From positions 64,001 through 128,000 of the IMG/VR virus record IMGVR_UViG_3300031555_004710: 64,000 nt of DNA; one strand, given 5' to 3'. The notes beneath the pieces were generated by a model. The model was given only the letters and a program-made list of their open reading frames with translations, was not told the origin of the DNA and made no database searches. Positions 4,275-34,555 of the stretch are shown here, piece by piece; positions within the stretch are counted from its first letter, which is position 1; each line of letters starts with the position of its first letter. This DNA is from a virus (taxonomy: Duplodnaviria; Caudoviricetes). Position numbers and translations under genes: made by a program.

Positions 4275-4286
4275 AACAATATACTA
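4275..4286 (+). promoter_or_regulatory. late-type promoter AACA-N6-TA driving an ORF-free unit
   Basis: AACAatatacTA. Confidence 0.5.
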
Positions 4287-4603
4287 ATGGATCCGAGAAG
4301 TTGATTCATTTCTATTAAATTTTTTAATTTAATAGACATTTCTTATTCTGCATCCGTCTTAAAACGGTAAAAGCTAATTTTTTCTCATTGTTCCCCTTGT
4401 GTTGATAGAGTTTTTTGTTGACATAGGCATGTAAGTCGAAAGTATTTTGCACCACATACGTTCTGCATTGACTATTCAGAGTTTTATGCTAGTATATGGT
4501 AAAAGTACTATAAAATAAGGGTCGTAGAAGAAACCCGTTGTTATCTTCTACGACCCGACCTTTCTGAATCTTTTTTAATGAAGTAGATTACTCTACTTCA
4601 TTA
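4286..4603 (+). ncRNA. candidate structured ncRNA (~320 nt)
   Basis: No SD-led ORF; helices TCTATTAAATT/AATTTAATAGA, ATTCAGA/TCTGAAT enclosing GGGTCGTAGAAGA/TCTTCTACGACCC; bounded by promoter and terminator. Confidence 0.5.
4576..4603. terminator. bidirectional intrinsic terminator
   Basis: TAATGAAGTAGA/TCTACTTCATTA followed by T tract. Confidence 0.75.
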
Positions 4604-4611
4604 TTTTCTTT

Positions 4612-5358
4612 TCAATCAATATTTGCATCAAATACATCCTGAGATGATATGATTAATTCAGAATCCAAAGGATGACCAATTGTTTCTCCTCCAGCTTCTT
4701 CTAATATAATTGTGTATTTTAAATTTAATGCTTCTGTACATCTATCAAATAAAAGCATTGATAGTCTATTAGGACCACGCAATACCTGCTTAGTATTGAA
4801 AAGCATGTTTTTAGAAGCAAATCTTATTTTATATTGATCAAGATCTACACCTTTATTGGTAATTGCTCGTTTAATAAGTTTCTTTAAAATATCGTCATCT
4901 AATGATTCAGGTGGTATTGATGAATGAGATGCGTCTGGTGTATTAAATATAACTATCTCATGATTTAATACAGCATTACGAATTTCATCGGCGTCTTGAC
5001 GAGTTATCTTATTTGCATAACGATATTCTTCAATTTCCTCTGGAGTTTCTGGATGGCATATGACATAGTTGCAACTTTCATCATCGTAGTAAACGCCAGG
5101 GCTTACTTTTTCAAAACCTTTAAGATCAGATAACTTTCCTTTATAGAAGTAATAATAATCTCCATTTAAATAAGCTATAGAAGGATCTAACTCTATACCA
5201 TTATCTAGTTTGAAATTTTTACCTTCATTACCAAAGCCATTGACTGTAAAATCCATTGGGCATAGTAATTTAGTTTGATAGTACTGCTCACCGATTTTTA
5301 ATAATGTGCTATTTGATAAAATTCTATTTGGGTTATCATTTAATAATTCATTTTTCAT
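4612..5358 (-). CDS. hypothetical protein, possible C-terminal XRE-like HTH
   Basis: 248-aa ORF; C-terminal LKKLIKRAITNKGVDL...LSMLLFDRCTEALNL pattern resembles XRE helices. Confidence 0.6.
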   Translation of the reverse strand: MKNELLNDNPNRILSNSTLLKIGEQYYQTKLLCPMDFTVNGFGNEGKNFKLDNGIELDPSIAYLNGDYYYFYKGKLSDLKGFEKVSPGVYYDDESCNYVICHPETPEEIEEYRYANKITRQDADEIRNAVLNHEIVIFNTPDASHSSIPPESLDDDILKKLIKRAITNKGVDLDQYKIRFASKNMLFNTKQVLRGPNRLSMLLFDRCTEALNLKYTIILEEAGGETIGHPLDSELIISSQDVFDANID

Positions 5359-5378
5359 TGATACTTACCTTCACTTTC

Positions 5379-6050
5379 TTAAAATCTAAAATTAGTATTA
5401 TATTGTCTTTGAGCATCCAATCTTTGCTGAACTTGTTCCCTACTTAAAATAGAACCAGTTACCAATGAATGTTGGAAGCATTGCATTGCAAATTGTGTAT
5501 ATGGAATAAAGTTAAAATCTAAAATAAATTTACCAAGACGTTTTAACTGATACTCTTGTAATATTATTCCATTTGCTGCCATATTTATGTAAAATATAAC
5601 TCCTGGAACCATTACATTTTGACCAACTTCTACAACGGTTGGTACTATTTTTAACGCTGTTTTAGCTTTACCATATTCATTAACGCAAATTGCATTTAAT
5701 TTCTGATATTCAGAATTAAACATTAACATATCTTCATCATTTCTACCATAAAGAATTTTCTTATTATCCTCAGTAAACCAAGATAGTGCTTCTCTAAACA
5801 TTTCTTTTACATCATCTAATATATTCTGAGTTATACAAAATGATAGTGCAGCTTGTGCATCTGGGTCTAATGATTGTCTTTCTGAATACTTTACAACTTT
5901 CTGGATATATAATGCCGTAAACGGATAATTTATTTTATATCTAGTATTCAAAGTATCCGTTGTAAATTGTCTCATCCAAAAGGTTACCTCAATATTAGGT
6001 AAATCTAAAGGAATATTAAAAGATATTGGCATTCCCTGATCATTACTCAT
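5379..6050 (-). CDS. hypothetical protein
   Basis: 223-aa ORF coupled to helicase, AAGGAG SD. Confidence 0.8.
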   Translation of the reverse strand: MSNDQGMPISFNIPLDLPNIEVTFWMRQFTTDTLNTRYKINYPFTALYIQKVVKYSERQSLDPDAQAALSFCITQNILDDVKEMFREALSWFTEDNKKILYGRNDEDMLMFNSEYQKLNAICVNEYGKAKTALKIVPTVVEVGQNVMVPGVIFYINMAANGIILQEYQLKRLGKFILDFNFIPYTQFAMQCFQHSLVTGSILSREQVQQRLDAQRQYNTNFRF

Positions 6051-6052
6051 AC

Positions 6053-7543: not shown

Positions 7544-7613
7544 TCACCTCTTCTCATATAAAAAATATACGTATAAATTTTTAAACGTTTAAAAATCTAT
7601 ATTTATAAAAAAA

Positions 7614-7647
7614 TAATGAGGTATAGTTAAAATTCTATACCTCATTA
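7614..7647. terminator. intrinsic terminator
   Basis: TAATGAGGTATAG/CTATACCTCATTA. Confidence 0.75.
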
Positions 7648-7650
7648 ATA

Positions 7651-7989
7651 TTAATACATTGTGACAAAAATCATTACATTATTGTCAATTTGATTCAGTA
7701 TAATATGATTATCAAAATTATTTTCATTAATACCATTTATATTTCCACAAAGTATATCATCATATACTTGTGAAACTGTCATATTTTCAGCAATAAACGT
7801 TCTAGTAGTTCCAGCAACCCAGCCATTTTCACATAAATATTTATCTCCTAAATATGATACGATATCTTTTGAAGTGTCCGTAAATGATTCTTCTGAATAA
7901 CTTAAAATTGAAGCATGATATGAATCATTTATAGATATAGTATCACTTATAACTGGCACAGGATTTGGTGGTGCAATTTCTTTAGCCAT
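7651..7989 (-). CDS. hypothetical protein
   Basis: start re-placed at ATG 7989 (MAKEIAPP) after GGAGG SD. Confidence 0.7.
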   Translation of the reverse strand: MAKEIAPPNPVPVISDTISINDSYHASILSYSEESFTDTSKDIVSYLGDKYLCENGWVAGTTRTFIAENMTVSQVYDDILCGNINGINENNFDNHIILNQIDNNVMIFVTMY

Positions 7990-10913: not shown

Positions 10914-10925
10914 TAGATTTTTGTT
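10914..10925 (-). promoter_or_regulatory. late-type promoter AACA-N6-TA
   Basis: AACAaaaatcTA. Confidence 0.6.
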
Positions 10926-10985: not shown

Positions 10986-13900
10986 TCACATTATATTATG
11001 AGCATTAAGTTTAGAAGCAACTAACATATGATGATTTGCTAGTGTTTCTTTATATTTTGATGTATTTGCAACTCTTTTTGGTGTTGAACCTCCAGATTGC
11101 GAAATATTTGTAGTATTAGATACTATATTATTAGTAGTAGCTGAACTTTGAGCAGATCCAGTAGTTTTCTTAGATTCAGCAAACCATTCAGATATTATTC
11201 CTATTACCTTATCAAGTTTACCATCAGTATTTGTCATATCAAATCCAGCATCTACAGTCATACCAGGACCGAAACCAATAGCTTCAAAATCTCTAGGCGT
11301 TACTTTAAATTCTTCTTGAGTGTCAATAGATTTACGTAACTGCTCACGATAAGCAGGGCTATCAATCTTAGTAGTTTTCTTAGCATTACCATAGCCTAAG
11401 CTAAGTAATGGAATATTTCCAAATCCATCAGCTGGCAGTTTTGTAAAATCAAATGACTTATTATCGCCAAGACTAACGACACCACTACCATAATTATATG
11501 TATCAGGATTAATATTATTTGTCTTATATGTCCAAGGTTTATTTCTAATCTCATAATGTAGATGATTTCCAGTACTACTTCCAGTTGTTCCAACTACACC
11601 AACGCATGTTCCAGCTTGATAATACTGTCCAATAGTTAAAGGAGATTTATTCTTCATATGAGCAAAATAATGTTTAGTACCATCATCAGCTTCAATAACA
11701 CAAAGATTACCATATCCACTATGATAATAGTTTTCAACGCATTTTCCAGCTACTGGTGTATATATATTTGGGCTTTTACCAGAAGTACCATAATCAATAC
11801 CAGCATGGAATTTATATTCACCACTAATTGGGTGAGTTCTATTTCCATAGTCTGATGTTTTTCTAGCATTTAGAGTATTTGTAAAGAATGCAGTTGCATT
11901 CTGAGAAGAGGTAGGTTTTGGTCCAGATTTTACAGGAGTGCTACCTGTATCTTCCGAACTACCACCTTCTTTATCTTTAGAAGTAGATAATCCCATAGCA
12001 TCAGTATCAAGTCCCATCTTGCCACCCATATGTCCAACAAGTATTTTATTTATTTCATTCATACCAGTAGAAAAAGTTTTAACTTTTTCCATATTATCTG
12101 TAGCATTTATAACTACATCACCAATTTTATCAAGACCTTCAGTTGGTTTACCAAATCCCAATGGATTAGTTTCTTTTGCAAAATATTGACTAAGTCCTCC
12201 AGGATCAGGAACGAATGATTTGAATTCGTAACCAGCAAGGTTTTCATAAGTGTCTTTAATTCTTTTTGTATATGAACTAGCATACTTGGAATTTGCCCAA
12301 TAAAGCTTTCTACTAAGTAATAAATTATAAGCTGCTGCCAATTCCTCATCCTTAGTTGTTAAATTAGCTTCTTGTGGCCAATGATACATAAATGCATTAT
12401 CTTTAGTTTTGCTAGTGATTAAATTTGGACCTGTATTACCAATATCAGCAAGTAATGGAAGAGTACGCAAATCTTTAATAAGACCAGTATCATAATAACC
12501 GGCAAAATGTGGATTATAAAATGTATCATGATAAAATTTCATTGCAGTAGCATCAATAGATGATCTTATAGCATCTTTATTTTGCTCATCACCTAATGCG
12601 CTAGAAAGATCATTCATCTGATCTTTAGTGAGAGCTTTACCATTATTAATTAAATTAGCATACTCAGTAAATTTACTCTTAAGTTCAAATGGAATACCTG
12701 AAGCATTAGCTAAGTTCTTAAGAAGTTTTACAGCGTTACCTGCATTTGCCTGATAAGGACCTACTGATGCCTTATTGTTAGTATCATTTATAACGGTGGC
12801 ATAATTTCCACCACTTTCACCGCGATATATATTCTCAATAGTTTTACCAAGTAATTCTTCCTGAATATTATTTGGGCTATTGATAGCATTAGTTAATGTA
12901 GTTGATGATCCTTTTAATATAGCACCTGATGATGCAGATGGATTTGTCTCCTCACGAGTAAGCTCTTCAAACTCTGTCCAGAAATCAGTTCCATTAAGAG
13001 TTGCATTTATTTTTGCTTGAGCAATGAATCCCAGCAACTTCAATTTACCAAAGAATTTCTTCTTTTTAGCAAATTCTGCAAGTTGTTCAGCATTCATTAT
13101 ACCTGTTTGCTCTACAACTGGAGTTGTTATTTCTGCACTTAATCCAGAAGCTTCTCTAGCAAGCTTTCTATAATCATCATCGTTTATATCAGTTATATAT
13201 GAACTAAATTTACTAGAATCTCTTGTAAATTCTAAAGTATTACCAACACCATACATTACACGACATGCATTACATAATGCAAGGAATTTTTCAGCATCGC
13301 TAAGAGGTGCCGATACAAATGTATTACCTTTACGATTTTCCGATACAATCGCAGCAGCATATATTTTAGCTACTAAGTCTTGTGTAAGACTGTGATATGT
13401 ATCAGTATATTTATTACCTAATTTCTTTGGAATAATTTGGATTGTTCCATAACTTCCACCATTCATTCCAAAGTATTGAGTTGATAAAACGTATCCTAAT
13501 CTTACTCTACTAATCGTACCACCAGTTCTATCTGCATATTTTATAATATTATTACTAGTTTTACCATGAACATCATCAGGATATTTATCAGTAAACCAGG
13601 TATCATTATCTTTAAAGTATTTATAGTTACTATTTAATATATTATCATCAATACCACTTGAATTGGTTTTATACCCACTTATAGTTCCATAATCAATAAG
13701 ACCATTTGATGCATAATCATCTACATATCTTGTAGTACCAGTATTAGAATATTTGATAGTTGCACTACCATCAGAATGTATTGTAGTAGTCGTATAAATT
13801 GGGTTACCTTTACGATCAGTACCAGTACGAACTCTAATAACTTTATCATATATAGGTTTACCTGACTCATCAACATCTGATTGAACATATATCACATTTG

Positions 13901-16900
13901 ATTTCGCAGGTGTAGATGTGGAAGTAGTGGATGTATTTGTATTTTTTCCAGTTAAATTTGTACTTTTACCAGGAGTTAAACCAACAGCTTTTTTATCTGA
14001 AGGTCTAGGACCATACCCAGCACTGTATGCCCAAGCATGTTCAGTATTCTTTGATACATTATTAATATCGTATAGTTTATGCTTACCAGTAATAGGATCC
14101 ATTACACTCATATTATTTCCATATATTCCATCAGCCATTACAATATGACCAGCTTGAGTATATGGGTCAGCTGAGCTACTAGATCTACCCGTCAATATTG
14201 TAGGTTTACCAGCAAGTAAATTATCCTTTAATTCATAAGAATTGTTAATAGGATTGCTTACGAGTCCCATTCTAGCAGCACCTTCAGTAAATAATCCAGC
14301 ATTTGCACCACCTTGGCTAATATAACCATTAGATGCAGCATATGCTCCCATATCTGCAGGTGTTATTGGACCGTATCCTATATTTCTTTCAGCAACAGTA
14401 TTTGCTGCAGCAGCTAATGCGGTAGGACCACAACCAGCTTTATCCATAGTAGCAACAGATCCATCTGGTAAATAACCTATTGGCATTTTACCCCATCTAG
14501 GATCTCCTTGCGCATACACACCATTTATAATAGCAGGATGCTTAGGTCCATATCCAAGACCTTGACCTAGACCTTTTTCTTTTTTATATGCAGCAATTTC
14601 ATCAGCAGTAACATCTTGTTTAGAATTCCATTGTGTTTCAAATTTAGTTCCAAATATAGCATTAGATGTCGCTTTAAAACCATCCCAGATGGTTCCACCA
14701 ATTCCCTTATTAACTTTATTATTATACTCTGTAGAAGATATATTTGTACCATGTTCTTTATTATATTTAGCAGTAGCAATTTCTAATGCAAGTTGTGAAT
14801 CTTCGAGACCTTTATCTCCCAGTAATCCAAAACCCCCATCTTCTGGAGCCATTGCTTTATATAATGCAGAAGCCCATTGGCATTTAAAATCAGTATCCAT
14901 TATTGCTTGTACTACTTCTAATACAATATTCAAAAGATATATTGGAGATAGTCCTAATACAAATTCAAATAATGCAGATATCAAACACATTAACCAGTCA
15001 GTTTCAGTTGTTCTAAATAGATTCTTTGCAGAAAATGCACCGTTTATTAAATCATATGCACCAAAAAGAACTGCCAGAGGAGTTGTCCTTAACCCCAGTT
15101 CAGCTAATCCACCTGCTATTTTTGTAGATAATTTCATCCATATTTTTTCATTAGAAAATACTTTTGTTGCAAGTTTTTCTATAATCTCTTTAAATCCTTT
15201 AATAAATTTACCAATTATTGAACTATCCGCAGTAAATTTACCTATGATTTTCATAACCTTTTCATTTTTAGATAATTTATCAATTGCACCCTTAATCTTT
15301 GCAAATAAGGATTTGATAACACCTTTTTTACTCTCTTTAACAGTAGCTTCCACTGCTTCAGTACCAGCTTCTTTAATTGCAGTAGTACCAGTTTTCTTCG
15401 CAAGTTTTTCAGCAAGTTCAGTAGCTGTTTCACTCTTAGTTTCTTTCATCAATCTCTCAGTTGATTCTTTAATAGCTTTTTCCATAGTCTCTTTAGAAGC
15501 AACTTGACCATTTTCAGAAAGAGTTGCAGAAATTGAAGCACCTATTGATTCAGAAAGTACTTTAGATGAAGCTTCTTCAGTTGAGAGTTTTAGTGCTAAC
15601 GCTCCTCCACCACTAGAAGCTTTTGCTAATGCAGAATCAGTAGCCTCTTTTATAGATTTTTCAAGTGCACCAGCATCAACATTCACAGTGCTTGAAGTTA
15701 CAGTTTTGGATAACTGCCTATTCATTCTCCAGTTACCAAGTGCAGATTTATTGCTAACTATTTCACTAGTAGCATCTGGAAGATAAGTAGCACCGAAACG
15801 AGATACTCCGTTAGAAACCTTATCTCCTACTTTGCCACCAGCTTTCCATCCAGCCTTTGCGCCTTTAAATCCACCAGTAGCCATTCCAGAAACTGTTCCA
15901 ACAGGACCACCAAAAGTACCAGCAACAGCACCACCAGTTGCACCAAGACTAGTACCTCCCATTACACCAACAGCTCTAAATGGCATTTTTACAGCAGCTC
16001 TACCTGCTTTACCATGAATTCCAGCTCTACCGGAATTTAAACCACCACGAATTATAGCATTTGAACCAGCAGTAATTAATCCAGTATTAGCTGTTTTATC
16101 TTGATTATATTCGATAATTACATTTCCATTTTCATCAATGGTTGCAGATTTTGCACTAACTTCAACCACTTCTCCAGTTTCAGAATCAATATAAGAAGCT
16201 TTACCGGAATTATTTTTCATTTCATCAACAAATGCTTGCTTATCAGATGAAGTTGAAAAACTACTATTAGATATAGTTTCTTTATCTCCATTTGGACGTT
16301 TCTTAAGTCCAAGAGCATATAATAATTCATTTCCTAAAGATTTTACAATCTCCCAAGAACCTTTTAATACAGCTCCCAAAATTTCAGGAGTTGATTTAAG
16401 GATTGCAGTTGCAAGAGGAGGAGCAATCTCAGAAATAACTGTACAGAATGCACTAATAATTTTAGGTGCATGGGTAGCAATAAGTTCTCCAGCCTTAACA
16501 ATTGTACCTGGAAGGTATTCAAAAATTATTTCTGGTACTTTACTTACTGCATCTTTAAGCCATGGGAATGCCTTATTATCCCACCATGGGGAAATTTTCT
16601 CATTCCACCATTCACCAACTACAGTGTCGTCAAACCATGTACCAAATTTAACACTAAAATCATGCATCACTTTTTTCATACTAAAATCATCAGAATTTAC
16701 ATAGTCATTAAATTCATCAATTTTATCACCAACTTTTTTCGCGGTTCCAGGTCTTATTAATTCAGCTACGGTAAATCCTAATGCGCCTAATAATCCTATA
16801 GAACCAGCAAATTTCATTCCTTTAAGAATGAATTGTCCAGCACCAGAGCCGCCAATAAGTTTTCCAACAGATTTTATTTTGCCCCAGATTCCACCAGTTT

Positions 16901-19900
16901 TTTCTTCTTCTTCATCTTCGGTTTTAGCATTTGGATCTACATCACCAGTCAATAATAATTGACCAGTACCTTTTCTAGCATATTCATCTTCAGCTTCTTC
17001 AGCATCAGCTCTACTTTTCTTTTTATTAAAGCCGAGCCAGCTTGTAAAAGCATTGAATTTACCCATTATTCTAGAACCAAAACTTTTACCTTTTCTCTTT
17101 TTAACAGCAGTATCATCAATTTCACCACTAGTAGAAATCTCTAGTTGTGCACTGTCTATTTCTTTATGCTCTTTATTAACATCTAAAAGATCTTTAATAT
17201 TAGCATTCATTTCACTAAGTATTTTAGTAGCTTGGTCTTCAGTAATATCTTTTCCAGCACCTTTTAATTTACCTCTTAATAAAGTCCATTCATTCGTAGC
17301 ATTTTCAATTTGCTCAGTTGAGTATTTGGAAGTAGCCATTCGACCATCGGTCATTATTTCACGCAATTTAGCTTGTCTATCAAATAACTCTTCTTTAGCA
17401 GATCTTTGAGGAGCTGGAAGGGCTAACAACTGCGAAGTTGTATTATTCATATTATTAACAATATCATTCTTGGAAGTTTTAGAACCTATCCAAGATTTAA
17501 ATTTACCCCACTTATTACTAAATCCGTTTTTAATTTTTGATCCATTTGCTCTCAAATTAAAATGGTTTGTATCAGTATTTGAACTTTCTGGAGTTTCTTC
17601 CCCAGATTTATATTTCGATTTTTGAGTAATTTTAAATTCTTTCATGAAACCAATGAAATCACCAGTTTCAGCATATTTAGAATATTTATAATCAGTTAAT
17701 CGATCAGAATCTACTTCATTAATATCAAAATCACGCATTTCGGGATTATTTAAATCTACATTAAATATTCCTGCACCATGTAATTTTGTACGAAGTTTTT
17801 TCTTATCTTTTCTCCATTTCTTATCAAAACTATCAGTATTATCTTTATCAAGTTTCTCTCTTGCGAAACCTGCAAAATCTTGTCTGATACCATCTAATAC
17901 GTCGAGTACATCATCTTGGAAATCTTCTGTCTTTTCTCTAGATCTTTTCTGTTCATCAGTTTCCTCAATGATCATCCCTCCACTAACTTTACTCTTAGAT
18001 GGATCCATTTTCTTTTTAAATTCATTCTTACGATAAATAATATCCATGATATCATCAGATGATTGTATATACTTTTCATCAATACCAAGTCTCTTAAATT
18101 TATCTCGTATTGCTTCAAACTTATAGTCATTGAATGTTAATTCTCGACCACCTAATTCATCACGTAACGTAGAACTAAATTTATCTATTTTACGCCATTT
18201 CTTTTCGTCGGCTTGACGAGCTTTTCGGTTTGCTTTAAGTGCACGATGTTCTTGATGAACCCCTCTCCAATTTAAATGATTTTTACCATCGGCGGCATGT
18301 TCGTCATTCCATCCTTCTCTAGCAGCATCTGCAATTTCACCATGACCAATATAAGTTCCAATAGTATCAGATATTTTACCAAATATATTTCGTTTATTAC
18401 CTTCAGCTTCTTCAGCGTCCCACTTCTCACGAAGTTTTCCACTTAAGTTACCTTTAGCATAGTAATTTTTATAGAATTCGGCATATTCCTTACGACGTTT
18501 ACCAGCAGTTAACATTCGTATTCCTTGTAAGCCTATACTTGCTGGAGCCATTGCTAATTTAGTAGCACCACTAGCAATACCTATCATTGATTTACCAACC
18601 CAACCAATTGCTTTAGTTATAGGGCTAAATATTGCTTTCGTTGTCTTACGGAATACATCCATTATACCGTTACCAATTGCCTCGAATTTTTCTTTAGCAA
18701 AATCAACGACATTATCCTTGATCCCTGTCAGTGAATCTAAAATAGGACCAAATGCTAATCTAAAAGGATATGTAATTTTCTCTTTAGTCCAATCAACTAA
18801 GTCTAACATTTTAGACTTGAATGTATCACTTATTGGTTGAACTACATTTGTCATGAGAATATTCTTAACCCTAGTTAACATTCCATCTTTTCTTCTACCT
18901 ATTACATTACCATTTTCATCAAGTTCTTCGGTACCAAATAACCATGCATTAAACTTACTAGTACTAGCAGCAATACCTAATCCAAGTCCAGCAATACCCA
19001 TACCAACAGGACCACCCAATGATAACATTGCAGGAAGATAACCGGCACTACTTAATACAGCTCCAGATAATGCACCAATTCCTAAACCAGCTCCAGCTTT
19101 TTTAATACCTGGCATAAGTTTAGAAAATCCACTTTTAACTTTATTAAAGGAATTCGAAATAATAGTACCACTTCGTTTTCCATCTTCACCTTTTTTACCA
19201 AGTAGCATTGTCTTAAAGCTTTCCGAATTCTTAAGAATACTAACTCCAGCTCCAAGTAATGCTCCGCCTAAAATACCTCCAGGAAGTATTTGCGTTCCTA
19301 ATATACCTAATCCGCTATTAAATCCAAGTGCTCCTTTTAAAAGACCTTTAAGTCCTCCAAGTACTGCACCACCAATAGCAAATGGCATAACTTTCTTAAA
19401 ACTAGCACGCATCTTTTCACTGATTAACCCACCTTCACGAGCCGAATTGGGATCATTTGGGTCGGATAATTTACCAAACATAAATGTCTTGAAAGCTTCA
19501 GTTTGTGATAATATTGTTAATCCACCACCAACTATAGCGCCGGCTATAGGACCACCAGGAAGAAACATGCTTCCAAGTAAACTGAATTGATTATTAAGAA
19601 GCCCAATACCTGCTCCAGCAACAGCACCAGCTAATGCTTTAGGCATTGTAGCTTTCATTTTCTTTAAGAAACCATCTTTATATGCCTTTTTCTTAGTTTC
19701 TACAGGTTTATCTATATCACCAACAGTAGATTCTGCAGCAGCTCTAACATGCTTCTCGGTTTTCTCACCAATTACCATAAGATTATTCTCAATAGTCTCT
19801 ATTGGCTTTTTAAGTCTGTCTTCAATTTCCTCATACTCTCTGTCGAATGCCATTGATTCATCTGTAGAATATTTAGATGTACCAAGTCGAGCTTCGATTC

Positions 19901-22763: not shown

Positions 22764-22809
22764 GTTATCACCTACTTTCTTAATAGGGTAAAACTTAGTT
22801 AGTTGACTT

Positions 22810-22821
22810 TAAGAATTTGTT
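22810..22821 (-). promoter_or_regulatory. late-type promoter AACA-N6-TA
   Basis: AACAaattctTA upstream of tape measure gene. Confidence 0.6.
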
Positions 22822-22847
22822 TTTACCCCTATATTTTAGGCAAATAA

Positions 22848-22882
22848 AGCATGAATAGTCTTATTAAAGGACTATTCATGCT
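22848..22882. terminator. intrinsic terminator
   Basis: AGCATGAATAGTC/GACTATTCATGCT. Confidence 0.7.
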
Positions 22883-23507
22883 ATTCAAATAATCTAAATT
22901 TTAGAATTTAAATATAATACAAAAACTATAAAGAAAAATAAATAATTATATCAAAACGATAATTCTTTCATAGTAGCACAATTATACATTTCTTAATATT
23001 TTTTCAAATTAAAGTAATATATAGATTATATTTATAACACTAGGCTTCCATAAAAAATAATATTTTTACTGATATAAATAATGACTACACAACTCCCTCT
23101 ATTCAAGGTGAGGCATGTAATTGTCAAAGTTCAATATAAAATATCAATATTTATTTTCACGCTAATATGATATTTATAAAAAGTATTATTTAAATCGAAA
23201 AACTTAATATGATATATTCTTACACATACTGAATCTAAAATCGATTTGCTATAAATAAAAACTATTCATAAAAATAATTATAGTATTATAATTTATCTTC
23301 ATTCATTTAAATTACTTTATATTTTTATAATATTTACTTTAATGATACCATATTTATCTTAATTGAGTATTATAAGATATTTTCATATTTCAATTACCAA
23401 TTGAAATAAATCAATTAAAAAATATAATATAGTACAAAGAGCAAAAATAAGCACCGCTTATTCAAAGTACAGCTCTTTCTACAATAATATAGATATTGTA
23501 GCATATT
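22848..23507 (-). ncRNA. candidate AU-rich ncRNA (~660 nt); alternatively a non-coding replication/packaging region
   Basis: ORF-free; AACA-N6-TA at 23507-23518; 5' hairpins CTACAATA/TATTGTAG and AAAGAGC/GCTCTTT enclosing AATAAGC/GCTTATT; own terminator. Confidence 0.35.
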
Positions 23508-23536
23508 AGAAAAATGTTAACCATCTAAAAAGATAC

Positions 23537-23571
23537 AAAAAAGAAGATAGTTCAACGACTATCTTCTTTTT
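23537..23571. terminator. intrinsic terminator
   Basis: AAAAAGAAGATAGT/ACTATCTTCTTTTT. Confidence 0.8.
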
Positions 23572-23582
23572 ATTATGTTCTA

Positions 23583-27454: not shown

Positions 27455-27466
27455 AACAAAATCTTA
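27455..27466 (+). promoter_or_regulatory. late-type promoter AACA-N6-TA
   Basis: AACAaaatctTA upstream of RNAP gene. Confidence 0.6.
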
Positions 27467-27501: not shown

Positions 27502-30500
27502 GTGCCTAATATGCTTTTTGAGAATTATAGAGATAATTTAGTATATAATTCGCAATCTAAAATAAATTTTCCTCGTAGTGGTTTTAATTTAAAATTAGGT
27601 ACGGGGTCTGCACTATTTTTAATGTGCCCAAATCGTAATAAAGCAGTAGAAGCATTAAGTGACCCTATTATGAATCTAGTACCATCTTTAACAAAAAGAT
27701 TTGTTACTGATACTACTTATCGTGATAAAATCGGTACTAAGATCGTAATGAGTCTAGAACGCTCGACTACTGATAGATATTATCTAAAACAAAAAGATTT
27801 TCCATTATTTTATATTCCATATTCTAATAGAGCATCAGTATTAAGTAAAAAACTTAATATCGTTAATGATTTATCTAGATGGATGGAGATTTTCTTTTCT
27901 AGAATAGATAATCTGAGCACAAAGAAAATATGTAGTGAATTTATTAGAGTTCTTAAAGATAGATTAAACGACTCTAATTTCAATGGTTATGAAAAAACCT
28001 TAATATTTGATTTAAATTCTTGGTCTAATACTATAAAATCATGTATAATCATGAATAAGAAATTACTAAATAACCCACTGAGTATATTATTATTCTCAGC
28101 ATGTTATTTCCCGGAATTACTACAACAACTTCCAAATATTAGACTAATGATAATAAACCGTGCAAGTGGTCAAATATATTTAACAAGATTGGATTTTATT
28201 ACAAAAAATAATTATCCAAAGATTAAATCGAAATTAGGTGTATTTAAATCTATTATCTTTAGCGTTGAGGATGACTATAATCCAAACGCAGATTCTGAAA
28301 CTATTGAGGAAGAAGTTAAATCTGAAATACTCCATAGTTTTAAAGAAGATATTAAAAATAGACTTAGATACAACTTGCTTGGAAAAGGTGATGCTGATCC
28401 ATTCTCAGAGATTGAAGATATAACTTCCTCGACAGCCGAACCTTTTGATGATTTATTAAATGAATTAGAAACTTCTTTAGATGAAAATAAAGAAGACGAT
28501 GTAGCAACTCCAGAGTCAGAGTCAGATTCAACTTCACCTGACACATTTGGTGATTTTAATATTACTGATGAAGTATCGAGAGCTGTAGATGAAGCTTTTG
28601 ATGAAATAGATGATATTGATGAAATAGACCCTGAAGAGCTCACAATGACATTAGCTAATAAGGTTAAAAATGAAAAATATAAATCTACCTTTATTCCAGT
28701 AAGAAGTGAAAAAGAATTAGCTAAAATTGATAGATTAATGGCTGACCAATCTAAAGTTTTATCTATCCCAGATATAGATGATGTCAAACGTAAATCAATA
28801 TCTACTTCTACTACAGGGGGATTTATCAATACCACAAATCCTAATATAGTATCATCAAAATTTGTTAATTTTGATAAAGAGTATACTGAAAAGTGTCTCG
28901 TAAAGAATATTGATGATTCTGTAGCAATTTTATCAAAAGCATCTGATAAAATTTTCGTATCAGAGAAAATTGTAGAAGATAGCTCAACTCCAATGGATTT
29001 AAAAGAAACCTACACATATAAATTAGTTGGTGAAAAAGGAAATAAGATGACCGTATCTTTTGATGTTCCTAAAATAATCGACAATAGTTATGTGTACTTA
29101 AATGGAACGAAGAAGAATATTCGTCACCAATTTATATTAAAACCAATCGTAAAAACTGGACCAGATACAGTACAACTTGTAACTGCATATAATAAAGTTT
29201 TTATATATAGACGTGGTGCAGTAAATCAAAATATAAACAGGATTGACACTTATATGGAAAAGAATCCTGATAAATTTAAAGTTAAACTAGGTAACTGCTC
29301 AATGCAAAATGAAGGTTATATGGTTCCTTTAGATTTTTCAATGCTTTCTAGATATTTTTCTGAATTTACTATTGAAAATACTACTTTCTATATGTCAATC
29401 AATATATTAAAAGAAAGATATAAAAAACTTACAGGAAAAGATATTTCGTATGATGAAATTCATGAGATTCCTGTAGGAATTAATAAGAAAACTAAAGAAC
29501 CAGTTATACTTAAATTATCTGATTCTTATACAGATTTAGTATTCTCATATTTTAATGATGAAGATAAATCTAATATTTCTAAAATTAAACGTAAACCAAG
29601 ATTCGTTGTGGCATCAGCAAAAATAATGGGAAGATATCTCCCATTAATTCTATTCATGATGTTTTGTGAAGGTTTTTCTAAAGTAATGAAAAAAGCTAAT
29701 ATAAAATACGAATTTATTGATAAAAAACTTAGAAAAAACTATGATCCAATGAAATTTGATGCAATTGAATTAAACGATGGATATATTATGTGGGAAAAGA
29801 CACCGTTCAGAAATGAATTATTAATGAACGGGTTTAAGTATTGTGATTTATCAGATTTTGATTATGAAGACTTGGAATCTAAAGATACATTCATATCATT
29901 AATTTTCCCTTTCTATCCTGGTAATTCTAAAATATATAATGCACTTGATAACTATAGAGATTTCTTACTTGATGAGAAAGCTAAAGAAATACTTACCGAT
30001 TTTGGTTATCCTACAGATTTGGTATCTCTATTAGTTGTAGCAGCTGGACTTCTTACTGATACTAATTATCTTATCGAAAATAATATGAATAATATGAGAA
30101 TTCGTAGTAATGAAGTTATAGCTGATTTAGTATATAAAAATATTACAGCGGCTTATGCTGAATATAGAAATAGTGGAAAGAGATTATCTATTAAGAAATC
30201 TCAAATAATCGATGACTTATTAAATTCTGATACAAATATGATTGAAGAGTTTTCTAGTTTAAATCCTGTACTGGAATTAGAAAAACAAAGAGCAGTATCA
30301 TTTAAGGGTATTAGAGGAATACAGTTAGACCGAGCAATGACTCTTCCTAGAAGGGCTTATGATAAATCTATGGTTGGTACAATAGGAATGTCAACATCTC
30401 CTGATGCAAATGTCGGAGTTGTCCGCGAACTAACTTTAGAACCACAAATCACATCGACATATGGTTATATTGATACTAGTAAAAATGTTGATGAATTAAC

Positions 30501-31761
30501 CTCATCTAACTTATTTACAACTGCAGAATTACTTTCTCCATTGGGAGTAATGCATGATGACCCTGATAGAACTGCTATGAGTTACAAGCAGACAAAATAT
30601 ATGATACCAGTTCAAGATGCAGATCCTGTTCTTATAGGAAATAAAGTAGAATCAACTATACCATATTTATTATCAGATGAATTTGTCGTTGATGCTAAAG
30701 AAGATGGTAAAGTTCTGGATGTTTCAGATGGCTTCTGTGTTATTGAATATAAGTCTGGTAAAAAACAGGCTATCAATATTGCTCCACGAGCTCAGAAAAA
30801 TGCTTCTGCTGGTTTCTGGATAGATAATACGTTGGTATGTGATTTAAAACCTGGTGACAAATTTAAGCAAGGTCAAATATTAGCATATAATAATAAGCAT
30901 TTTACTAAGAATTCTGAGGATATGGGTGCTTCTATGAATTTAGGTGTACTATGTAAGATAGCAATCTCATCACAATGGGATGTGTTTGAAGATAGTGCTC
31001 CTATATCTAAAAGACTTTCAGAAAAACTTAGTTCCGAAATGGTTGATGAAAAGAGCTTAACATTTTCTCCATACACTTATATTGAATCTATTGCAAAAAT
31101 TGGTGATAAAGTAAATGCTGGTGATCCATTAATTATCTTCTCTGATGCAATGACAGCAGAAATGCAAAGGGCATTTACTTCTATGAGAGATGATAATAAA
31201 CAAGCAGTAATCGAATCATCAAAAACTACAATTCATAGTAAATATACCGGAGAAATTGTAGATATTAAAGTATATACAACTTCAGAACTCGACGAACTTG
31301 ATCCATCTTTAAGAAAAGTTGTAGAAGATTATTGGAAGAGAATCAAGAAAAGAAATAATATTCTTAATAAATATGCTAATGATGATGATTTAGAGTACTA
31401 TAAAGCTGGTCAAGTGATAAGTGAAGTTGCAGAAGTTGTAAAAATTGGTGATAATGGTAAGGTTCGAGGGGTTTCTATGAATCCTGGAGATGTATTAATC
31501 CTTTTCTACGTAAAATATAACGTACCTGCAAGTAAAGGTGATAAAGTTGTATGTAGTGTTTGTAAAGGTATTGTGTCTCATGTATTTGAAGAAGGGCTAG
31601 AACCATTCTCAGAATATAGAACAGACGAACCAATAGATACAATAGTTGCGCCTTTAGCAGTTGCGGCTAGAAAAGTTCCTGCAATATTTCTAACTATATT
31701 TGGTAATAAACTACTAATTGAACTGAAAAAACAATTAGAAGAAATATATTTAGATAATTAA
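27502..31761 (+). CDS. phage multisubunit RNA polymerase beta-like subunit (large N-terminal part; probably virion RNAP)
   Basis: YVYLNG, STSPDANVGVVREL, HDDPDRTAMSYKQ, FEDSAPIS, GDKV..KGIV, DTIVAPLAVAARK match beta conserved regions; stops before the extreme beta C-terminus. Confidence 0.9.
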   Translation: MPNMLFENYRDNLVYNSQSKINFPRSGFNLKLGTGSALFLMCPNRNKAVEALSDPIMNLVPSLTKRFVTDTTYRDKIGTKIVMSLERSTTDRYYLKQKDFPLFYIPYSNRASVLSKKLNIVNDLSRWMEIFFSRIDNLSTKKICSEFIRVLKDRLNDSNFNGYEKTLIFDLNSWSNTIKSCIIMNKKLLNNPLSILLFSACYFPELLQQLPNIRLMIINRASGQIYLTRLDFITKNNYPKIKSKLGVFKSIIFSVEDDYNPNADSETIEEEVKSEILHSFKEDIKNRLRYNLLGKGDADPFSEIEDITSSTAEPFDDLLNELETSLDENKEDDVATPESESDSTSPDTFGDFNITDEVSRAVDEAFDEIDDIDEIDPEELTMTLANKVKNEKYKSTFIPVRSEKELAKIDRLMADQSKVLSIPDIDDVKRKSISTSTTGGFINTTNPNIVSSKFVNFDKEYTEKCLVKNIDDSVAILSKASDKIFVSEKIVEDSSTPMDLKETYTYKLVGEKGNKMTVSFDVPKIIDNSYVYLNGTKKNIRHQFILKPIVKTGPDTVQLVTAYNKVFIYRRGAVNQNINRIDTYMEKNPDKFKVKLGNCSMQNEGYMVPLDFSMLSRYFSEFTIENTTFYMSINILKERYKKLTGKDISYDEIHEIPVGINKKTKEPVILKLSDSYTDLVFSYFNDEDKSNISKIKRKPRFVVASAKIMGRYLPLILFMMFCEGFSKVMKKANIKYEFIDKKLRKNYDPMKFDAIELNDGYIMWEKTPFRNELLMNGFKYCDLSDFDYEDLESKDTFISLIFPFYPGNSKIYNALDNYRDFLLDEKAKEILTDFGYPTDLVSLLVVAAGLLTDTNYLIENNMNNMRIRSNEVIADLVYKNITAAYAEYRNSGKRLSIKKSQIIDDLLNSDTNMIEEFSSLNPVLELEKQRAVSFKGIRGIQLDRAMTLPRRAYDKSMVGTIGMSTSPDANVGVVRELTLEPQITSTYGYIDTSKNVDELTSSNLFTTAELLSPLGVMHDDPDRTAMSYKQTKYMIPVQDADPVLIGNKVESTIPYLLSDEFVVDAKEDGKVLDVSDGFCVIEYKSGKKQAINIAPRAQKNASAGFWIDNTLVCDLKPGDKFKQGQILAYNNKHFTKNSEDMGASMNLGVLCKIAISSQWDVFEDSAPISKRLSEKLSSEMVDEKSLTFSPYTYIESIAKIGDKVNAGDPLIIFSDAMTAEMQRAFTSMRDDNKQAVIESSKTTIHSKYTGEIVDIKVYTTSELDELDPSLRKVVEDYWKRIKKRNNILNKYANDDDLEYYKAGQVISEVAEVVKIGDNGKVRGVSMNPGDVLILFYVKYNVPASKGDKVVCSVCKGIVSHVFEEGLEPFSEYRTDEPIDTIVAPLAVAARKVPAIFLTIFGNKLLIELKKQLEEIYLDN

Positions 31762-31765
31762 AAAT

Positions 31766-31801
31766 AATTAGAGATGTAGATTCTATTCTACATCTCTAAT
31801 T
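31766..31801 (+). terminator. intrinsic terminator
   Basis: AATTAGAGATGTAGA/TCTACATCTCTAATT plus T tract. Confidence 0.8.
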
Positions 31802-31808
31802 TTATTGA

Positions 31809-31816
31809 TATATTAT
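31809..31816 (+). promoter_or_regulatory. early-type promoter TATATTAT
   Basis: motif immediately upstream of AAGGAG SD. Confidence 0.55.
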
Positions 31817-31820
31817 TATA

Positions 31821-33476
31821 TTGAAGGAAGGAGTTGATGATATGATGGATAATATTAATTTTCGAATGCTTAAAAAGTCCGAGCAAAAATTTATTATAAA
31901 ACACGGATTATTTGAAAATATTGGAAAACCTATTAAACTTGGGGGCGATATATATTATCCCATTCTATATAGGAATTTATTTCTACGATATTATATTACA
32001 TTCAATGGATGTGTCTATGATATTGTAACTAATCAAACCAAAAAATATAATATATATGATAGTATAGTATTAATCGACATTAATACAAATTTTAAAAAAA
32101 TGTATACCATAAGAGAACTAATATTTGCATCATTTTATAGATTTCCTGAAGGTTCAGATATTACGATGACAAACGAGCATACACATGATATTGAATATGC
32201 TTATCATATTGAATCTGGGACGGTTGGTTTTTATACTATTTTAGGAGTGGAATTTAGAAAAGTCATAGTACCAAAACATAATAGATATTATAAGGCAGTA
32301 ACTAAAAGTAGGAAATTTGTATTAATAGTTTCGGAAAATGGTGCTGTCTATGATATACAAAAGAAACGATTTTTAAATATTAACATTGATGATGATGGGA
32401 TTCCTTATATAATACTAAAGCATACTGTAAGGATTACTATTGATGAGATATTATTATATAGCTGGAATGAGCATTTAGAAGTTGACCCAGAACTTTATCA
32501 ACTAATAAACACCTCTCCAATAAAATTATTTGTGAATCGACATACATTAGTATTATTCAATGATAAAAGTAATATATATCTACCATTAAACAATGCAGTC
32601 GTTTCTCAAAATATTAGCCCATTTATATCTAGCGAAAATCTTCCTCGCTCATTTAAACGTAATAATAGATATTATGATAAATGGTTAATTGATGATTTAG
32701 GTAATCTTAGTCAAATACCTATAGATGGACTATCTGAATATTATATATCTAAATGCGGAATAATACTTAATCAAAATAATGCAATACTAAATCCTTATAA
32801 GATAATATATAATAATGAAAATATATCAGATGTATTGTATAAATTTCCGAATATCGATAAAGTATTTTCAATTGGTGATATATTAATATGGACATATTTT
32901 AGATTAAATTATTCAGCAATTGAAAAATCTTTTATACAATTTACATTTCATAAAAGATTCAATATACCAATAGTATATAATTTACACATAATATCTAAAT
33001 TCTTTCAAATAGGAAATACTACTCCATTAATAGGTGAAATGATATTTACACCAATTAGTGGATTTCCAAATTTCTTCATATCTACAACAGGTGCAATTTT
33101 TAATGCTAAGCATCGATATTTTATTCAGATGCACAATCAATCTAGAGATGACGGGACTACTCATATTCAGTTACCAATAGGAAACGAGTTACGCTGGATA
33201 GATATAAATAAAACAATGTATCGTAGCTGGTATGGTTCGATTCCACATGGAGCCAGAGTTAGCATGAAAAATATGATACGTGGAGATTATAGTTTAGCAA
33301 ATATACAACTAAATATTTCTTCATCAACTAATTGTAATATAAATAAAGTTAGAAAAATTCATGCATCAATTAATAAAAGTAGAGATCGTGAAAGAAAAAT
33401 AATAGAGAGTATTCAATCTATAACAATAGATGAATACTCTAATAAATTTCCTATACCAGAAATAATTGATATTTAA
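31821..33476 (+). CDS. protein of tandem degenerate NUMOD4/HNH-like repeats (true start probably ATG ~31842)
   Basis: four units YYITFNGCVYD, IVSENGAVYD, YYISKCGIILN, FFISTTGAIFN; last unit ends in an HNH_3-like segment lacking the catalytic His. Confidence 0.55.
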   Translation: MKEGVDDMMDNINFRMLKKSEQKFIIKHGLFENIGKPIKLGGDIYYPILYRNLFLRYYITFNGCVYDIVTNQTKKYNIYDSIVLIDINTNFKKMYTIRELIFASFYRFPEGSDITMTNEHTHDIEYAYHIESGTVGFYTILGVEFRKVIVPKHNRYYKAVTKSRKFVLIVSENGAVYDIQKKRFLNINIDDDGIPYIILKHTVRITIDEILLYSWNEHLEVDPELYQLINTSPIKLFVNRHTLVLFNDKSNIYLPLNNAVVSQNISPFISSENLPRSFKRNNRYYDKWLIDDLGNLSQIPIDGLSEYYISKCGIILNQNNAILNPYKIIYNNENISDVLYKFPNIDKVFSIGDILIWTYFRLNYSAIEKSFIQFTFHKRFNIPIVYNLHIISKFFQIGNTTPLIGEMIFTPISGFPNFFISTTGAIFNAKHRYFIQMHNQSRDDGTTHIQLPIGNELRWIDINKTMYRSWYGSIPHGARVSMKNMIRGDYSLANIQLNISSSTNCNINKVRKIHASINKSRDRERKIIESIQSITIDEYSNKFPIPEIIDI

Positions 33477-33483
33477 AAAGAAT

Positions 33484-33511
33484 GGGATAGCGACTATTTA
33501 TTCGCTATCCC
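33484..33511. terminator. terminator-like hairpin
   Basis: GGGATAGCGA/TCGCTATCCC directly after stop; weak T tract. Confidence 0.6.
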
Positions 33512-33778
33512 AAATATATAGTATATGATTTACTATTCTCCCACCTCAATCAGTTCTATTAACCGTTTTATATTAGTATCTCATAAAGAGATGCTACCCT
33601 GAAATAATTTGAAAATATTACATATCTTTATTTTTTTATATTATACACGAATAGGTCGTGGGGCCTTGATATAGATTTTTCAAATTAATAATTTTAGTAA
33701 ACTGAAATTCTCAAAAAAGAGAGAAAATAAATCATTAATTTAATGTTATGTATTAAAATTAAAAAATAAAACACTTGT

Positions 33779-33790
33779 AACATATGAGTA
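33779..33790 (+). promoter_or_regulatory. late-type promoter AACA-N6-TA driving an ORF-free unit
   Basis: AACAtatgagTA where the GC-richer structured stretch begins. Confidence 0.5.
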
Positions 33791-34555
33791 AACCTATCGA
33801 ATAGAAATTCATACTAGGTGTAATGAATGGTATTCGAAGGAGCAGTGAAAAATAGGATAAATGATTATCCTATCGGTTGATTATTCTTACAGGATTTTGA
33901 TAAACATTGAAATATTAATCATAGATGAAACGTGACTGCGATATCGGTTCATAAAAATGAAAAGAGCGTCAAAGCGCGGTATGGGATTAGGGGGGAAGCT
34001 CTCTATGATACAGCGGGTAAGTTTCTGCGTGCAGATGGATCCATGATTGATTAATATTTACAATTTCTATTTTTAATAGTGAGTTGGTTGTTTACTTTTC
34101 GGTAAGGTATGCACAGGAGTATAAACGGCATTAGTGGTAATTGGTGAGATGGAGGTCAACGAGCACCCATCAAATGGAATTGTAAGATAACTAGATTAAA
34201 AATCCTAGTTCTAGATATTTTGACAATGGTTACTATTTTACTATATGTATTATAGAGCGCATTGTTTTAAATTTTATTTAAACAATTTTCAGCCAATTAC
34301 CGCCATAAACGGTAACTCGGTAATTGCTTAGCCTCTAATGCACCCGTTTATTTATTTTTTATTTAATTTAGTAGACATGGTAGGGTACATTATCGGCACT
34401 CTTAGATTTTATAATTTAGTAGAAATATGGTTTCAGTTAAATACAGAAACTATATTTCTTTTTCATGCGTAAAGAATTTATTTCCAACTTGTTTGGAAAT
34501 AAATTATGCGCAAAATGAAAAAGTAAAACATCCTATCATAGATAGGATGTTTTTT
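33790..34555 (+). ncRNA. candidate large structured ncRNA (~765 nt)
   Basis: ORF-free, GC above background, nested long-range helices (33910-33921/34048-34059; 34121-34144/34293-34351), about ten stems, 3' terminator. Confidence 0.65.
34525..34555 (+). terminator. intrinsic terminator
   Basis: AAAACATCCTATC/GATAGGATGTTTT plus T tract, with no ORF ending upstream. Confidence 0.8.

Follow-up and report, generated by a model that had tools for sequence, protein, structure and literature searches.

Four candidate genes for conserved, structured RNAs in late-promoter gaps of an AR9-like jumbo phage

Three large gaps in the phage DNA analysed here appear to hold four real RNA genes, conserved, folded and protein-less, each with a late promoter and a terminator. 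Judged from their sequence, these units are very probably noncoding RNA genes, with expression predicted alongside the late (virion) genes. The window, that is, the whole stretch analysed, comprises 64,000 nt (positions 64,001 to 128,000 of record IMGVR_UViG_3300031555_004710) of the 236,671-bp (236.7-kb) genome of an uncultured jumbo phage (Duplodnaviria, Caudoviricetes). The phage is AR9-like and encodes multisubunit RNA polymerases of the AR9/PBS1 type; its 1419-aa RNAP β-like protein is 28–31% identical over ~950 aa to the β-like subunits encoded by PBS1 and by jumbo phages of Staphylococcus and Listeria. In a genome-wide ranking of gaps by size, based on a greedy ORF map, ORF-free gap 3 (33477–34681, 1205 nt) came first, gap 2 (22764–23582, 819 nt) third and gap 1 (4203–4611, 409 nt) fifth, and within the window the three were the biggest ORF-free intervals, as an earlier sequence-only reading had stated. 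That reading took each gap for one late-promoter noncoding RNA unit and raised the possibility that they form one multi-RNA system. The units were indeed conserved, ORF-free and structured, with late promoter and terminator at opposite ends; the layout of one unit per gap applied to gaps 1 and 2 but not to gap 3, which contained two divergent late units, and the single coordinated set was not upheld.

Late promoters at the gap sites

The late promoter of AR9 is AACA-(6N)-TA/G, the last base being the transcription start (PMC5312081). In the present genome AACA-N6-TA occurred at 135 sites, 64 of them in the intergenic DNA that makes up 8.2% of the total, giving 3.28 sites per kb of intergenic versus 0.33 per kb of coding DNA, and 48 sites lay 30–110 nt upstream of a same-strand ORF. 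This 10-fold enrichment confirmed the positional bias that had been suspected, and control motifs with other spacing or other tetramers had no intergenic or upstream bias. The earlier caution that the bare motif can arise by chance about once per kb was well founded, base composition predicting ~0.8 sites per kb per strand, but the genomic context of the sites was far from chance. The consensus could be extended by an A after the TA, present in 45/48 sites. When scored against the 48 true promoters with a flank weight matrix, the sites of gaps 1, 2 and 3 ranked 23, 34 and 32, respectively; coding sites and all other orphan sites but one scored far lower than the gap sites, the single high-scoring exception lying 15 nt before an ORF.

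The motif was found exactly where it had been placed, at 4275–4286 (+), 23518–23507 (−) and 33779–33790 (+). It also preceded the three genes that had been called tape measure, baseplate-like and RNAP, the first two labels being putative: the site at 22821 (−) precedes the gene for a giant 3925-aa, lysin-like protein with M23 and C39-like peptidase domains, that at 10925 (−) the gene for a 730-aa protein matching the PHROG 'virion structural protein', and that at 27455 (+) the RNAP β-like gene. Exact motifs at 4275, 23518, 33779 and 33747, the enrichment before genes and the presence of the RNAP genes together mark these sites as predicted AR9-type late promoters. At the three gap sites the promoter stayed in place in every relative having the homologous unit, with L016 (N7 spacing) as a possible exception.

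Structure and conservation of the four predicted RNAs

The gaps were compared with those of relatives labelled L005, L007, L009, L010, L011, L013, L016, L018, L019 and L021/L023, in which the neighbouring proteins were only 30–83% identical. Position, promoter, terminator and compensatory pairs were all kept, the combination of synteny and structure that the sequence-only reading had proposed to look for. Compensatory changes affected 8/18, 34/73 and 22/55 consensus pairs of RNA-1, RNA-2 and RNA-3, compared with at most 1 in column shuffles, a lenient control; the counts come from only 4–6 distinct sequences per RNA. The MFE z-scores of the same three RNAs ranged from −5 to −7 (−6.9, −5.1 and −6.6, respectively), and the proposed strand folded better than its complement by 8 to 41 kcal/mol, with the smallest margin for RNA-1 (−143 versus −104 kcal/mol for RNA-2 and −212 versus −171 kcal/mol for RNA-3). 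G-U pairs were compatible with the proposed strand only. Helices had also been noted near the predicted starts; these were unusually stable, the first 50 nt of RNA-1, RNA-2 and RNA-3 exceeding in stability 47/48, 40/48 and 48/48 late mRNA leaders, and the 5' helices covaried. At the far ends the intrinsic terminators were present as described, at 4576–4603, 22880–22850 (−) and 34525–34553, each with a T tract, and in each of RNA-1 to RNA-4 the transcribed strand carries a GC-containing hairpin and, after it, a T tract, predicting termination there. Compensatory pairs among homologues occurred together with the lack of a conserved reading frame: similarity detected by tblastx was short, equal in six frames and without a preferred frame, the longest gap ORFs were unrelated between relatives, and no single stop reassignment produced an open frame of more than 103 codons in the gaps.

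RNA-1 (~330 nt, 4286..4613, +) is an orphan unit: both neighbouring genes lie on the other strand. Its late promoter (4275..4286, +; predicted start A4286) was at the same place in six lineages, being retained in L010, L011, L013, L019 and L021/L023. The 5'-terminal hairpin (4286..4310, +) has an invariant upper stem and loop; 4 of its 10 pairs showed changes of both partners, and one invariant G-U pair is compatible with the + strand only. The middle part aligned poorly and has no consensus fold. Within the 3' part lies a GC-rich 13-bp hairpin (4519..4556), the inner part of which appears as a minus-strand terminator-like match (4536–4519) and which probably ends the convergent 248-aa mRNA. 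The predicted terminator of RNA-1 itself (4576..4613, +), with a 12-bp stem and a T tract, was retained in L019. Two tandem early-promoter-like motifs (4203..4253, −), judged by the AR9 early consensus (PMC5312081), belong to the SbcC-like gene and lie outside RNA-1. Neither tblastx nor ORF comparison among relatives revealed a conserved ORF in RNA-1.

RNA-2 (~665 nt, 22841..23507, −; 19% GC) is structured in its 5' domain and AU-rich in its body, where conserved islands occur; one hairpin is invariant. Its promoter (23507..23518, −; predicted start A23507) was located ~60 nt into the gap in 6/6 lineages, and relatives with 38–40% GC retained the same layout. The 5' domain (23437..23501, −) consists of a hairpin and nested helices, with covarying pairs in alignment columns 12–36 and 38–79; the middle part, like that of RNA-1, aligned poorly and has no consensus fold. 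A 36-nt hairpin (23084..23119, −) had the same sequence in L005 and L007 as in the window and varied in L016 and L018. The predicted terminator (22841..22880, −), an 11-bp stem with a T tract, was missed by the terminator scan because its loop is 9 nt; it was identified by reading the sequence and from compensatory changes, which upheld the stem in L005, L007 and L016. Directly past it is a separate late promoter for the giant gene (22810..22821, −), present in 6/6 lineages ~55 nt before the start codon.

RNA-3 (~770 nt, 33790..34563, +) is a large structured RNA. Its promoter (33779..33790, +; predicted start A33790) was at the same place in 4/5 lineages that have the homologous RNA, being retained in L005, L007 and L009, and L016 may use N7 spacing, as judged by eye. 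A long-range helix (34134–34147 with 34289–34303, span 34134..34303, +) encloses a hairpin at 34148–34171; over its 19 pairs 76/76 cells were paired, with 6 pairs changed on both sides, whereas only 17–51% of cells paired in slid controls. The 3' module hairpin (34462..34520, +) carried compensatory changes in L009 and was near-identical in L007 (87% identity over 63 nt), whose neighbouring protein is only 33% identical. The predicted terminator (34525..34563, +), a 13-bp stem with a T tract, has equivalent hairpins in L007 and L009, and two tandem early promoters of a 188-aa gene (34598..34641, +) follow outside RNA-3. The fourth unit, RNA-4 (~260 nt, 33473..33736, −), is divergent from RNA-3 and has a consensus fold with paired 5' and 3' ends (z-score −4.0). 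Its promoter (33736..33747, −) was found in 4/4 lineages, being retained in L005, L007 and L009, and had a low flank-matrix score; the T tract of its predicted terminator (33512–33483, −) is on the minus strand only.

Mode of action and alternatives

We consider it likely that the gaps are four independent genes for stable structured noncoding RNAs, transcribed late by the non-virion RNA polymerase and acting separately in trans as folded RNAs. The starts, ends, abundance and timing of all four are predictions from the DNA. In the mechanism we propose, the non-virion RNA polymerase of the phage would transcribe RNA-1 to RNA-4 late in infection from AACA-N6-TAA promoters, and all four RNAs would end at their intrinsic terminators. 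In RNA-1, RNA-2 and RNA-3 a stable hairpin, of the kind that shields a 5' end, would lie at the start or no more than 8 nt from it; RNA-4, back to back with RNA-3, would have its 5' end paired with its 3' end. Recognition would depend on the shape of the RNAs and on their invariant hairpins or loops, and their late-phase function would be to bind proteins or act as scaffolds, not antisense regulation, a reading we prefer because base-pairing targets were not found within the phage, which is evidence of a negative kind.

That the RNAs would work separately is consistent with their comparison with one another. The multi-RNA system suggested earlier found no support: no sequence similarity was found among the RNAs, their longest complementary runs were within the shuffled range, and their phyletic ranges among relatives differed, the L013/L018 lineage having RNA-1 and RNA-2 and lacking RNA-3 and RNA-4. 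Complementarity between the RNAs and phage mRNAs was likewise not above chance. The sequence-only reading had also raised a role in RNAP regulation; a 6S-like decoy of the phage RNAP found no support, as a copy of the promoter template strand (TA-N6-TGTT) had no conserved occurrence in the four RNAs or their homologues. The other roles it named, in assembly, packaging or decoying of defences, are guesses.

It is unlikely that the units are cis-acting leaders, with RNA-2 a long leader or a processive-antitermination element (like put of HK022) that would let the polymerase pass the terminator and complete the 11.8-kb giant gene, and RNA-3 a late leader giving continuous expression to the downstream early operon. 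Both do face a same-strand gene, and two or three stem-loops in the 5' domain of RNA-2 lie directly past its start. Between RNA and gene, however, stands a terminator kept by compensatory changes and then a second, separately conserved promoter (the late promoter of the giant gene after RNA-2, the early promoters of the 188-aa gene after RNA-3), so that neither RNA is placed as an mRNA 5' UTR, and the length of the units, 665–770 nt, exceeds that of every AR9 leader. For RNA-1 and RNA-4 a leader function is excluded by the lack of a following same-strand gene, the next such ORF being 23 kb and 6.5 kb away, respectively.

We give a similarly small chance to trans-acting antisense RNAs that would pair through short seeds with host mRNAs, host rRNA or phage mRNAs. 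Conserved single-stranded islands in RNA-1 and RNA-2 would suit such a function, and the invariant RNA-2 hairpin bears an anti-Shine-Dalgarno-like tract, but this tract is paired within the hairpin. In a search of the phage genome, the sites complementary to ten conserved blocks did not exceed the number expected from composition, and near start codons there were just two 1-mismatch sites, without pattern; in addition, seed-type sRNAs do not usually have lengths of 330–770 nt or long-range helices.

Far less probable is a role of the gaps, and of the 19%-GC gap 2 above all, as DNA-level elements such as replication origins or packaging sites, where the promoter would serve only to open or prime the DNA. 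Transcription-primed origins exist in T4 and T7, and gap 2 is very AT-rich with a promoter and conserved sequence islands; against this, iterons and tandem repeats were not found in the gaps, conservation obeyed the rules of RNA pairing, with G-U pairs compatible with a single strand, the terminators were conserved, and the layout persisted in the relatives of 38–40% GC. Decayed or hidden genes (pseudogenes, genes for small proteins or genes using a reassigned stop codon) are the least credible explanation, for the 60–79-codon ORFs in gap 1 equivalents of some relatives were unrelated in sequence, strand and position, tblastx gave no preferred frame, stop reassignment did not open the gaps, and gap size, promoter and terminator were kept although flanking proteins had diverged to 30–60% identity.

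Comparison with known RNAs and with AR9

The four RNAs appear unrelated to one another and without a match in catalogued families. Searched against Rfam 15 (GOLLD, ROOL, group I/II introns, 6S, tmRNA, RNase P and others), the gaps had no match at the gathering threshold, and with the limit relaxed to E = 10 for gap 3 and E = 1 for gap 2 only chance-level matches appeared; the gaps of the relatives had no Rfam match, nor did RNA-3 match the group I models. Deposited phage records, AR9 and PBS1 included, had no sequence match to the RNAs. Nor did the four resemble in sequence other candidate RNA genes of this genome, namely a group I-like RNA, a 365-nt early RNA and late small RNAs of ~190 and ~100 nt.

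The put RNAs of phage HK022 are cis-acting antitermination RNAs, and the 5' domain of RNA-2 shares with them stem-loops right after a promoter facing a very long gene. Unlike RNA-2, put RNAs are ~70 nt long and lack a terminator plus promoter before their genes, and no sequence or Rfam relation was found; the comparison is an analogy only.

GOLLD (RF01998) and ROOL (RF03087) belong to the large ornate RNAs that phages and prophages encode (PMC5737381; cryo-EM 10.1101/2024.12.08.627333). RNA-2 and RNA-3 resemble them in being ~600–800 nt long and phage-borne, with no ORF, long-range helices and no assigned function, although the AU content of RNA-2 is far higher and its structure less even. Neighbouring tRNA genes, frequent for GOLLD and ROOL, were not seen beside RNA-2 or RNA-3. 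By this analogy RNA-2, RNA-3 and perhaps RNA-1 might add new classes to the large ornate RNAs of phages, ones that build RNA-only or RNA-protein assemblies, are made with the virion parts and are used as scaffolds, packaged cargo or decoys in late infection of a gut Firmicute, an idea we regard as speculative and improbable.

The late units of AR9, among them orphan and antisense late transcripts, use the same promoter in front of late and virion genes, AACA-N6-TA with transcription starting at the A. Some late promoters of AR9 drive transcripts other than mRNA (antisense) (PMC5312081; Lavysh et al. 2017). Those antisense RNAs overlap genes and are not described as conserved structured RNAs; the RNAs predicted here, in contrast, occupy dedicated intergenic slots and have their own terminators and covarying helices.

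Relatives of the phage and its late promoter

The window corresponds to bases 64001-128000 of a 236,671-bp IMG/VR virus record that is about 94% complete and 29.7% GC. Its 1419-aa protein (27502-31761) is a multisubunit RNA polymerase beta-like subunit with 28-31% identity to those of PBS1 and of Staphylococcus, Listeria and Yersinia jumbo phages; at the DNA level, megablast and blastn found no genuine match among 50,697 phage records. Three proteins gave access to relatives: the 551-aa protein beside gap 3, the 248-aa protein beside gap 1, and the RNAP beta-like subunit. All of these relatives were uncultured metagenome contigs, taken from ENA and Logan assemblies, and several were 218-255 kb long (locus L052, 99% identical to L007, added no information). 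Searches of IMG/VR with proteins, alignments and four DNA patterns turned up no closer relative, none exceeding 46% identity for the 248-aa protein. A pattern scan of GTDB genomes yielded 10 matches, which we rejected as chance because none adjoined the flanking genes. In relative L018 the RNAP beta-like gene is broken up by a group I intron (L018:13081-13400; Rfam 79.9 bits), leaving ORFs of 1065 and 389 aa, unlike the uninterrupted gene of the window.

In phage AR9, 94 late starts were mapped to AACA-(6N)-TA/G, with the start at the last base; for early starts the element was AT-rich, TATATTAT-(6N)-G (Lavysh et al., PMC5312081). AACA-N6-TA is also the late promoter of the phage studied here. 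It occurred 135 times in the whole genome, and 64 of the 135 sites lay outside ORFs, in 8.2% of the DNA, giving densities of 3.28 per kb outside ORFs versus 0.33 per kb in coding DNA (both strands). Forty-eight sites were located 30-110 nt upstream of a same-strand ORF, 45 of them with a TAA continuation. The sequence-only reading, which treated the three gaps as late-promoter ncRNA units, had relied on the position of the motif, and this positional enrichment was borne out by the gene-proximal clustering and by control motifs with altered spacings or tetramers, which showed no intergenic bias. Its caveat about chance occurrence applies to the motif taken bare, since base composition gives an expectation of about 0.8 sites per kb on each strand (about 1.6 per kb on both strands). 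Relative to that prediction the motif is about fivefold rarer in coding DNA, which suggests selection against stray late promoters within genes. A weight matrix trained on sequence flanking the 48 gene-proximal sites placed the three gap sites (4275, +; 23518, -; 33779, +) at ranks 23, 34 and 32 of 48; the median flank score of the 71 coding sites was far under the true-promoter range, and the sole other orphan site with a comparable score sits 15 nt upstream of an ORF. For annotation, flank score combined with conservation tells real orphan promoters from noise, even though the 6-base motif by itself often arises by chance.

Architecture and conservation of the gap units

Synteny in relatives also proved favorable to the earlier proposal, as the gaps were kept as units with the late motif placed alike. 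Gap 1 (4203-4611) measured 274-386 nt in L010, L011/L012, L013/L014 and L021/L023, where identity of the 248-aa protein is 56% or more, and was also present in L019; all these relatives carried the late motif at the same end and on the same strand, and an invariant 10-mer followed it at +8 in five lineages. Where the 248-aa protein was at most 46% identical, the gap shrank to 0-107 nt, except in L031 (492 nt) and L068 (268 nt), and the unit was unrecognisable. The predicted transcript of this gap, RNA-1, runs from 4286 to about 4613 (+) between two minus-strand genes. It carries one hairpin at its 5' terminus and another besides, plus a pair of conserved single-stranded 10-mers; these are followed by a GC-rich hairpin, which the convergent 248-aa mRNA shares at its end, and by a terminator. 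Early-promoter motifs occur in tandem pairs 22-28 nt apart at 4203-4253 (-), for an SbcC-like gene, and at 34598-34641 (+), for the 188-aa gene; since the SbcC-like gene has its own promoters, RNA-1 does not overlap its leader.

Gap 2 (22764-23582) measured 756-855 nt in L005, L007, L016, L017 and L018, and two late motifs, one about 60 nt into the gap and one about 55 nt upstream of the giant gene, were found in 6/6 lineages. Predicted RNA-2 extends from 23507, directly after the terminator of the 195-aa gene, to about 22841 (-), and comprises a covarying 5' domain, an AU-rich body in which islands are conserved, a hairpin whose 36 nt are identical across three lineages, and a terminator; the giant gene's own late promoter follows immediately 3'. 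The 30 nt upstream of that promoter (22822-22850, -) are near-invariant in four lineages, far more conserved than the upstream regions of other late promoters, and could be an additional control element. The giant ORF itself (10986-22763, -) encodes 3925 aa with M23 and C39-like peptidase domains, and its homologues in relatives (3823-4431 aa) additionally have CHAP and lysozyme domains; it resembles a very large protein of the virion that degrades cell walls more than a proven tape measure.

Gap 3 (33477-34681) measured 1197-1693 nt in L007, L009 and L016 and was cut by the contig end in L005/L006. It contains two predicted back-to-back units, with about 30 nt between their promoters. RNA-4 (33736 to about 33475, -; promoter 33736..33747) has pairing 5' and 3' ends and a terminator hairpin with a T tract on the minus strand only. 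RNA-3 (33790 to about 34563, +) contains several covarying hairpins and a long-range helix and ends at a strong terminator, and the early promoter pair of the 188-aa gene (34598-34641, +) occupies the remainder of the gap. The RNA-3 late motif was kept in L005, L007 and L009; the L016 gap contained homologous blocks, but its motif was, by eye, at best N7-spaced. The 3' hairpin module of RNA-3 is 87% identical in L007, though the neighbouring protein is only 33% identical there. Alternative pairing, as in a switch, through a duplicated segment (34121-34143 and 34305-34326) was rejected; the second copy was not kept in L005, L007 and L009, and the long-range helix was.

The 551-aa protein (31821-33476, +) contains four NUMOD4-like repeats; PHROG matched it weakly to the HNH family (E 1e-5), at the C-terminus alone, Pfam gave no match, and an early-promoter motif lies at 31809. 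Among the relatives seen, RNA-3 and RNA-4 were present exactly where this protein was (five lineages with both, two with neither), which we regard as a lead rather than evidence because the two lineages without them are also the most distant. In L017 and L018, which lack the 551-aa gene, gap 3 is replaced by different, GC-rich sequence. These strongly self-complementary stretches (L017:14440-14600 and L018:15640-16100), at the gap 3 site upstream of the 188-aa gene, matched no Rfam family and could represent further RNA genes occupying that slot.

It is possible that some of these units are cis-acting leader or antitermination elements, RNA-2 for the giant gene and RNA-3 for the 188-aa operon. 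The conserved terminator-plus-promoter arrangement opposes this reading, and for RNA-1 and RNA-4 it is impossible.

RNA folding and coding potential

Compared with dinucleotide shuffles, the minimum free energies of RNA-1, RNA-2 and RNA-3 had z-scores of -6.9, -5.1 and -6.6. The proposed strand folded better than the opposite one in each case (-88.6 vs -80.6, -143 vs -104, and -212 vs -171 kcal/mol, respectively), the signature of G-U pairs. In E-INS-i alignments folded with RNAalifold, 8/18 consensus pairs of RNA-1, 34/73 of RNA-2 and 22/55 of RNA-3 were compensatory, versus at most one in column-shuffled controls; MAFFT-based folds concurred for the RNA-1 5' hairpin, for the RNA-2 5' domain, long-range helix and central hairpin, and for the RNA-3 core. 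The RNA-3 core helix, set by hand on an end-anchored alignment, has 19 pairs, with 76/76 cells paired and six pairs altered on both sides, whereas pairing dropped to 17-51% of cells when partners were shifted by 1-3 columns. In folding stability over the first 50 nt, RNA-1, RNA-2 and RNA-3 surpassed 47, 40 and 48, respectively, of the 48 late mRNA leaders, so the helices that had been noticed near the predicted starts are real and distinctive. It is unlikely that the gaps are DNA elements such as origins, as no iterons were found in them and their conservation obeys strand-specific pairing rules. To the extent that sequence can show it, decayed or recoded genes are excluded: tblastx among relatives gave only short pieces spread evenly over six frames and no conserved frame, the longest ORFs in the gaps varied in strand, position and sequence with none shared, and no single stop-codon reassignment opened more than 103 codons.

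The original observation of motif, helices and gaps was confirmed. Its reading as ncRNA units gained comparative evidence from the conserved gaps, motif and terminators, the covariation and the lack of coding signal, and folded non-coding RNAs are well supported by the alignments; its extension to a coordinated system did not.

Relationships among the RNAs and to known families

Nothing was found to link the RNAs as a multi-RNA system beyond promoter class and general design. The units had no sequence similarity to each other or to the rest of the genome, their longest mutually complementary runs (9-11 nt) were inside the shuffled range, and their distributions differ, RNA-1 and RNA-2 being present and RNA-3 and RNA-4 absent in the L013/L018 lineage. 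Ten conserved blocks showed no excess of complementary sites in the phage genome; only two sites with one mismatch lay near a start codon, with no pattern. A 6S-like RNAP decoy was rejected, the RNAs containing no copy of the promoter template strand, and a role in RNAP regulation by way of such a mimic was not supported. The roles proposed for the RNAs are unsupported.

No Rfam 15 family was found in the gaps of the window or of relatives (seven related loci), at gathering scores or at permissive E-values. Rfam matches in the window and these loci were limited to the intron in the L018 RNAP gene and, at 43721-43787 (-), a tRNA-like element missed by ARAGORN (34.4 bits, E 0.002). Its anticodon arm is unusual, reading either as a 5-nt loop or as a 4-bp stem that puts G at position 33; an early-promoter-like motif is present at 43813 (-), and a T tract follows the element. 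This may be a phage tRNA of non-canonical form, or an RNA resembling a tRNA, transcribed from an early promoter of its own.

To our knowledge, jumbo phages with their own RNAP have been studied almost solely through proteins; here, about 2 kb of the 64-kb window would be four conserved late RNA genes. Since AR9 has defined this promoter class, the predicted RNAs lend themselves to direct tests of their exact starts, ends and timing. Nearest among known RNAs are GOLLD and ROOL, large ornate RNAs of phages that have no homology to the units described here but are similar in size and setting, RNA-2 and RNA-3 falling within their size range, and the late and antisense transcripts of AR9, which arise from the same promoter as these units.
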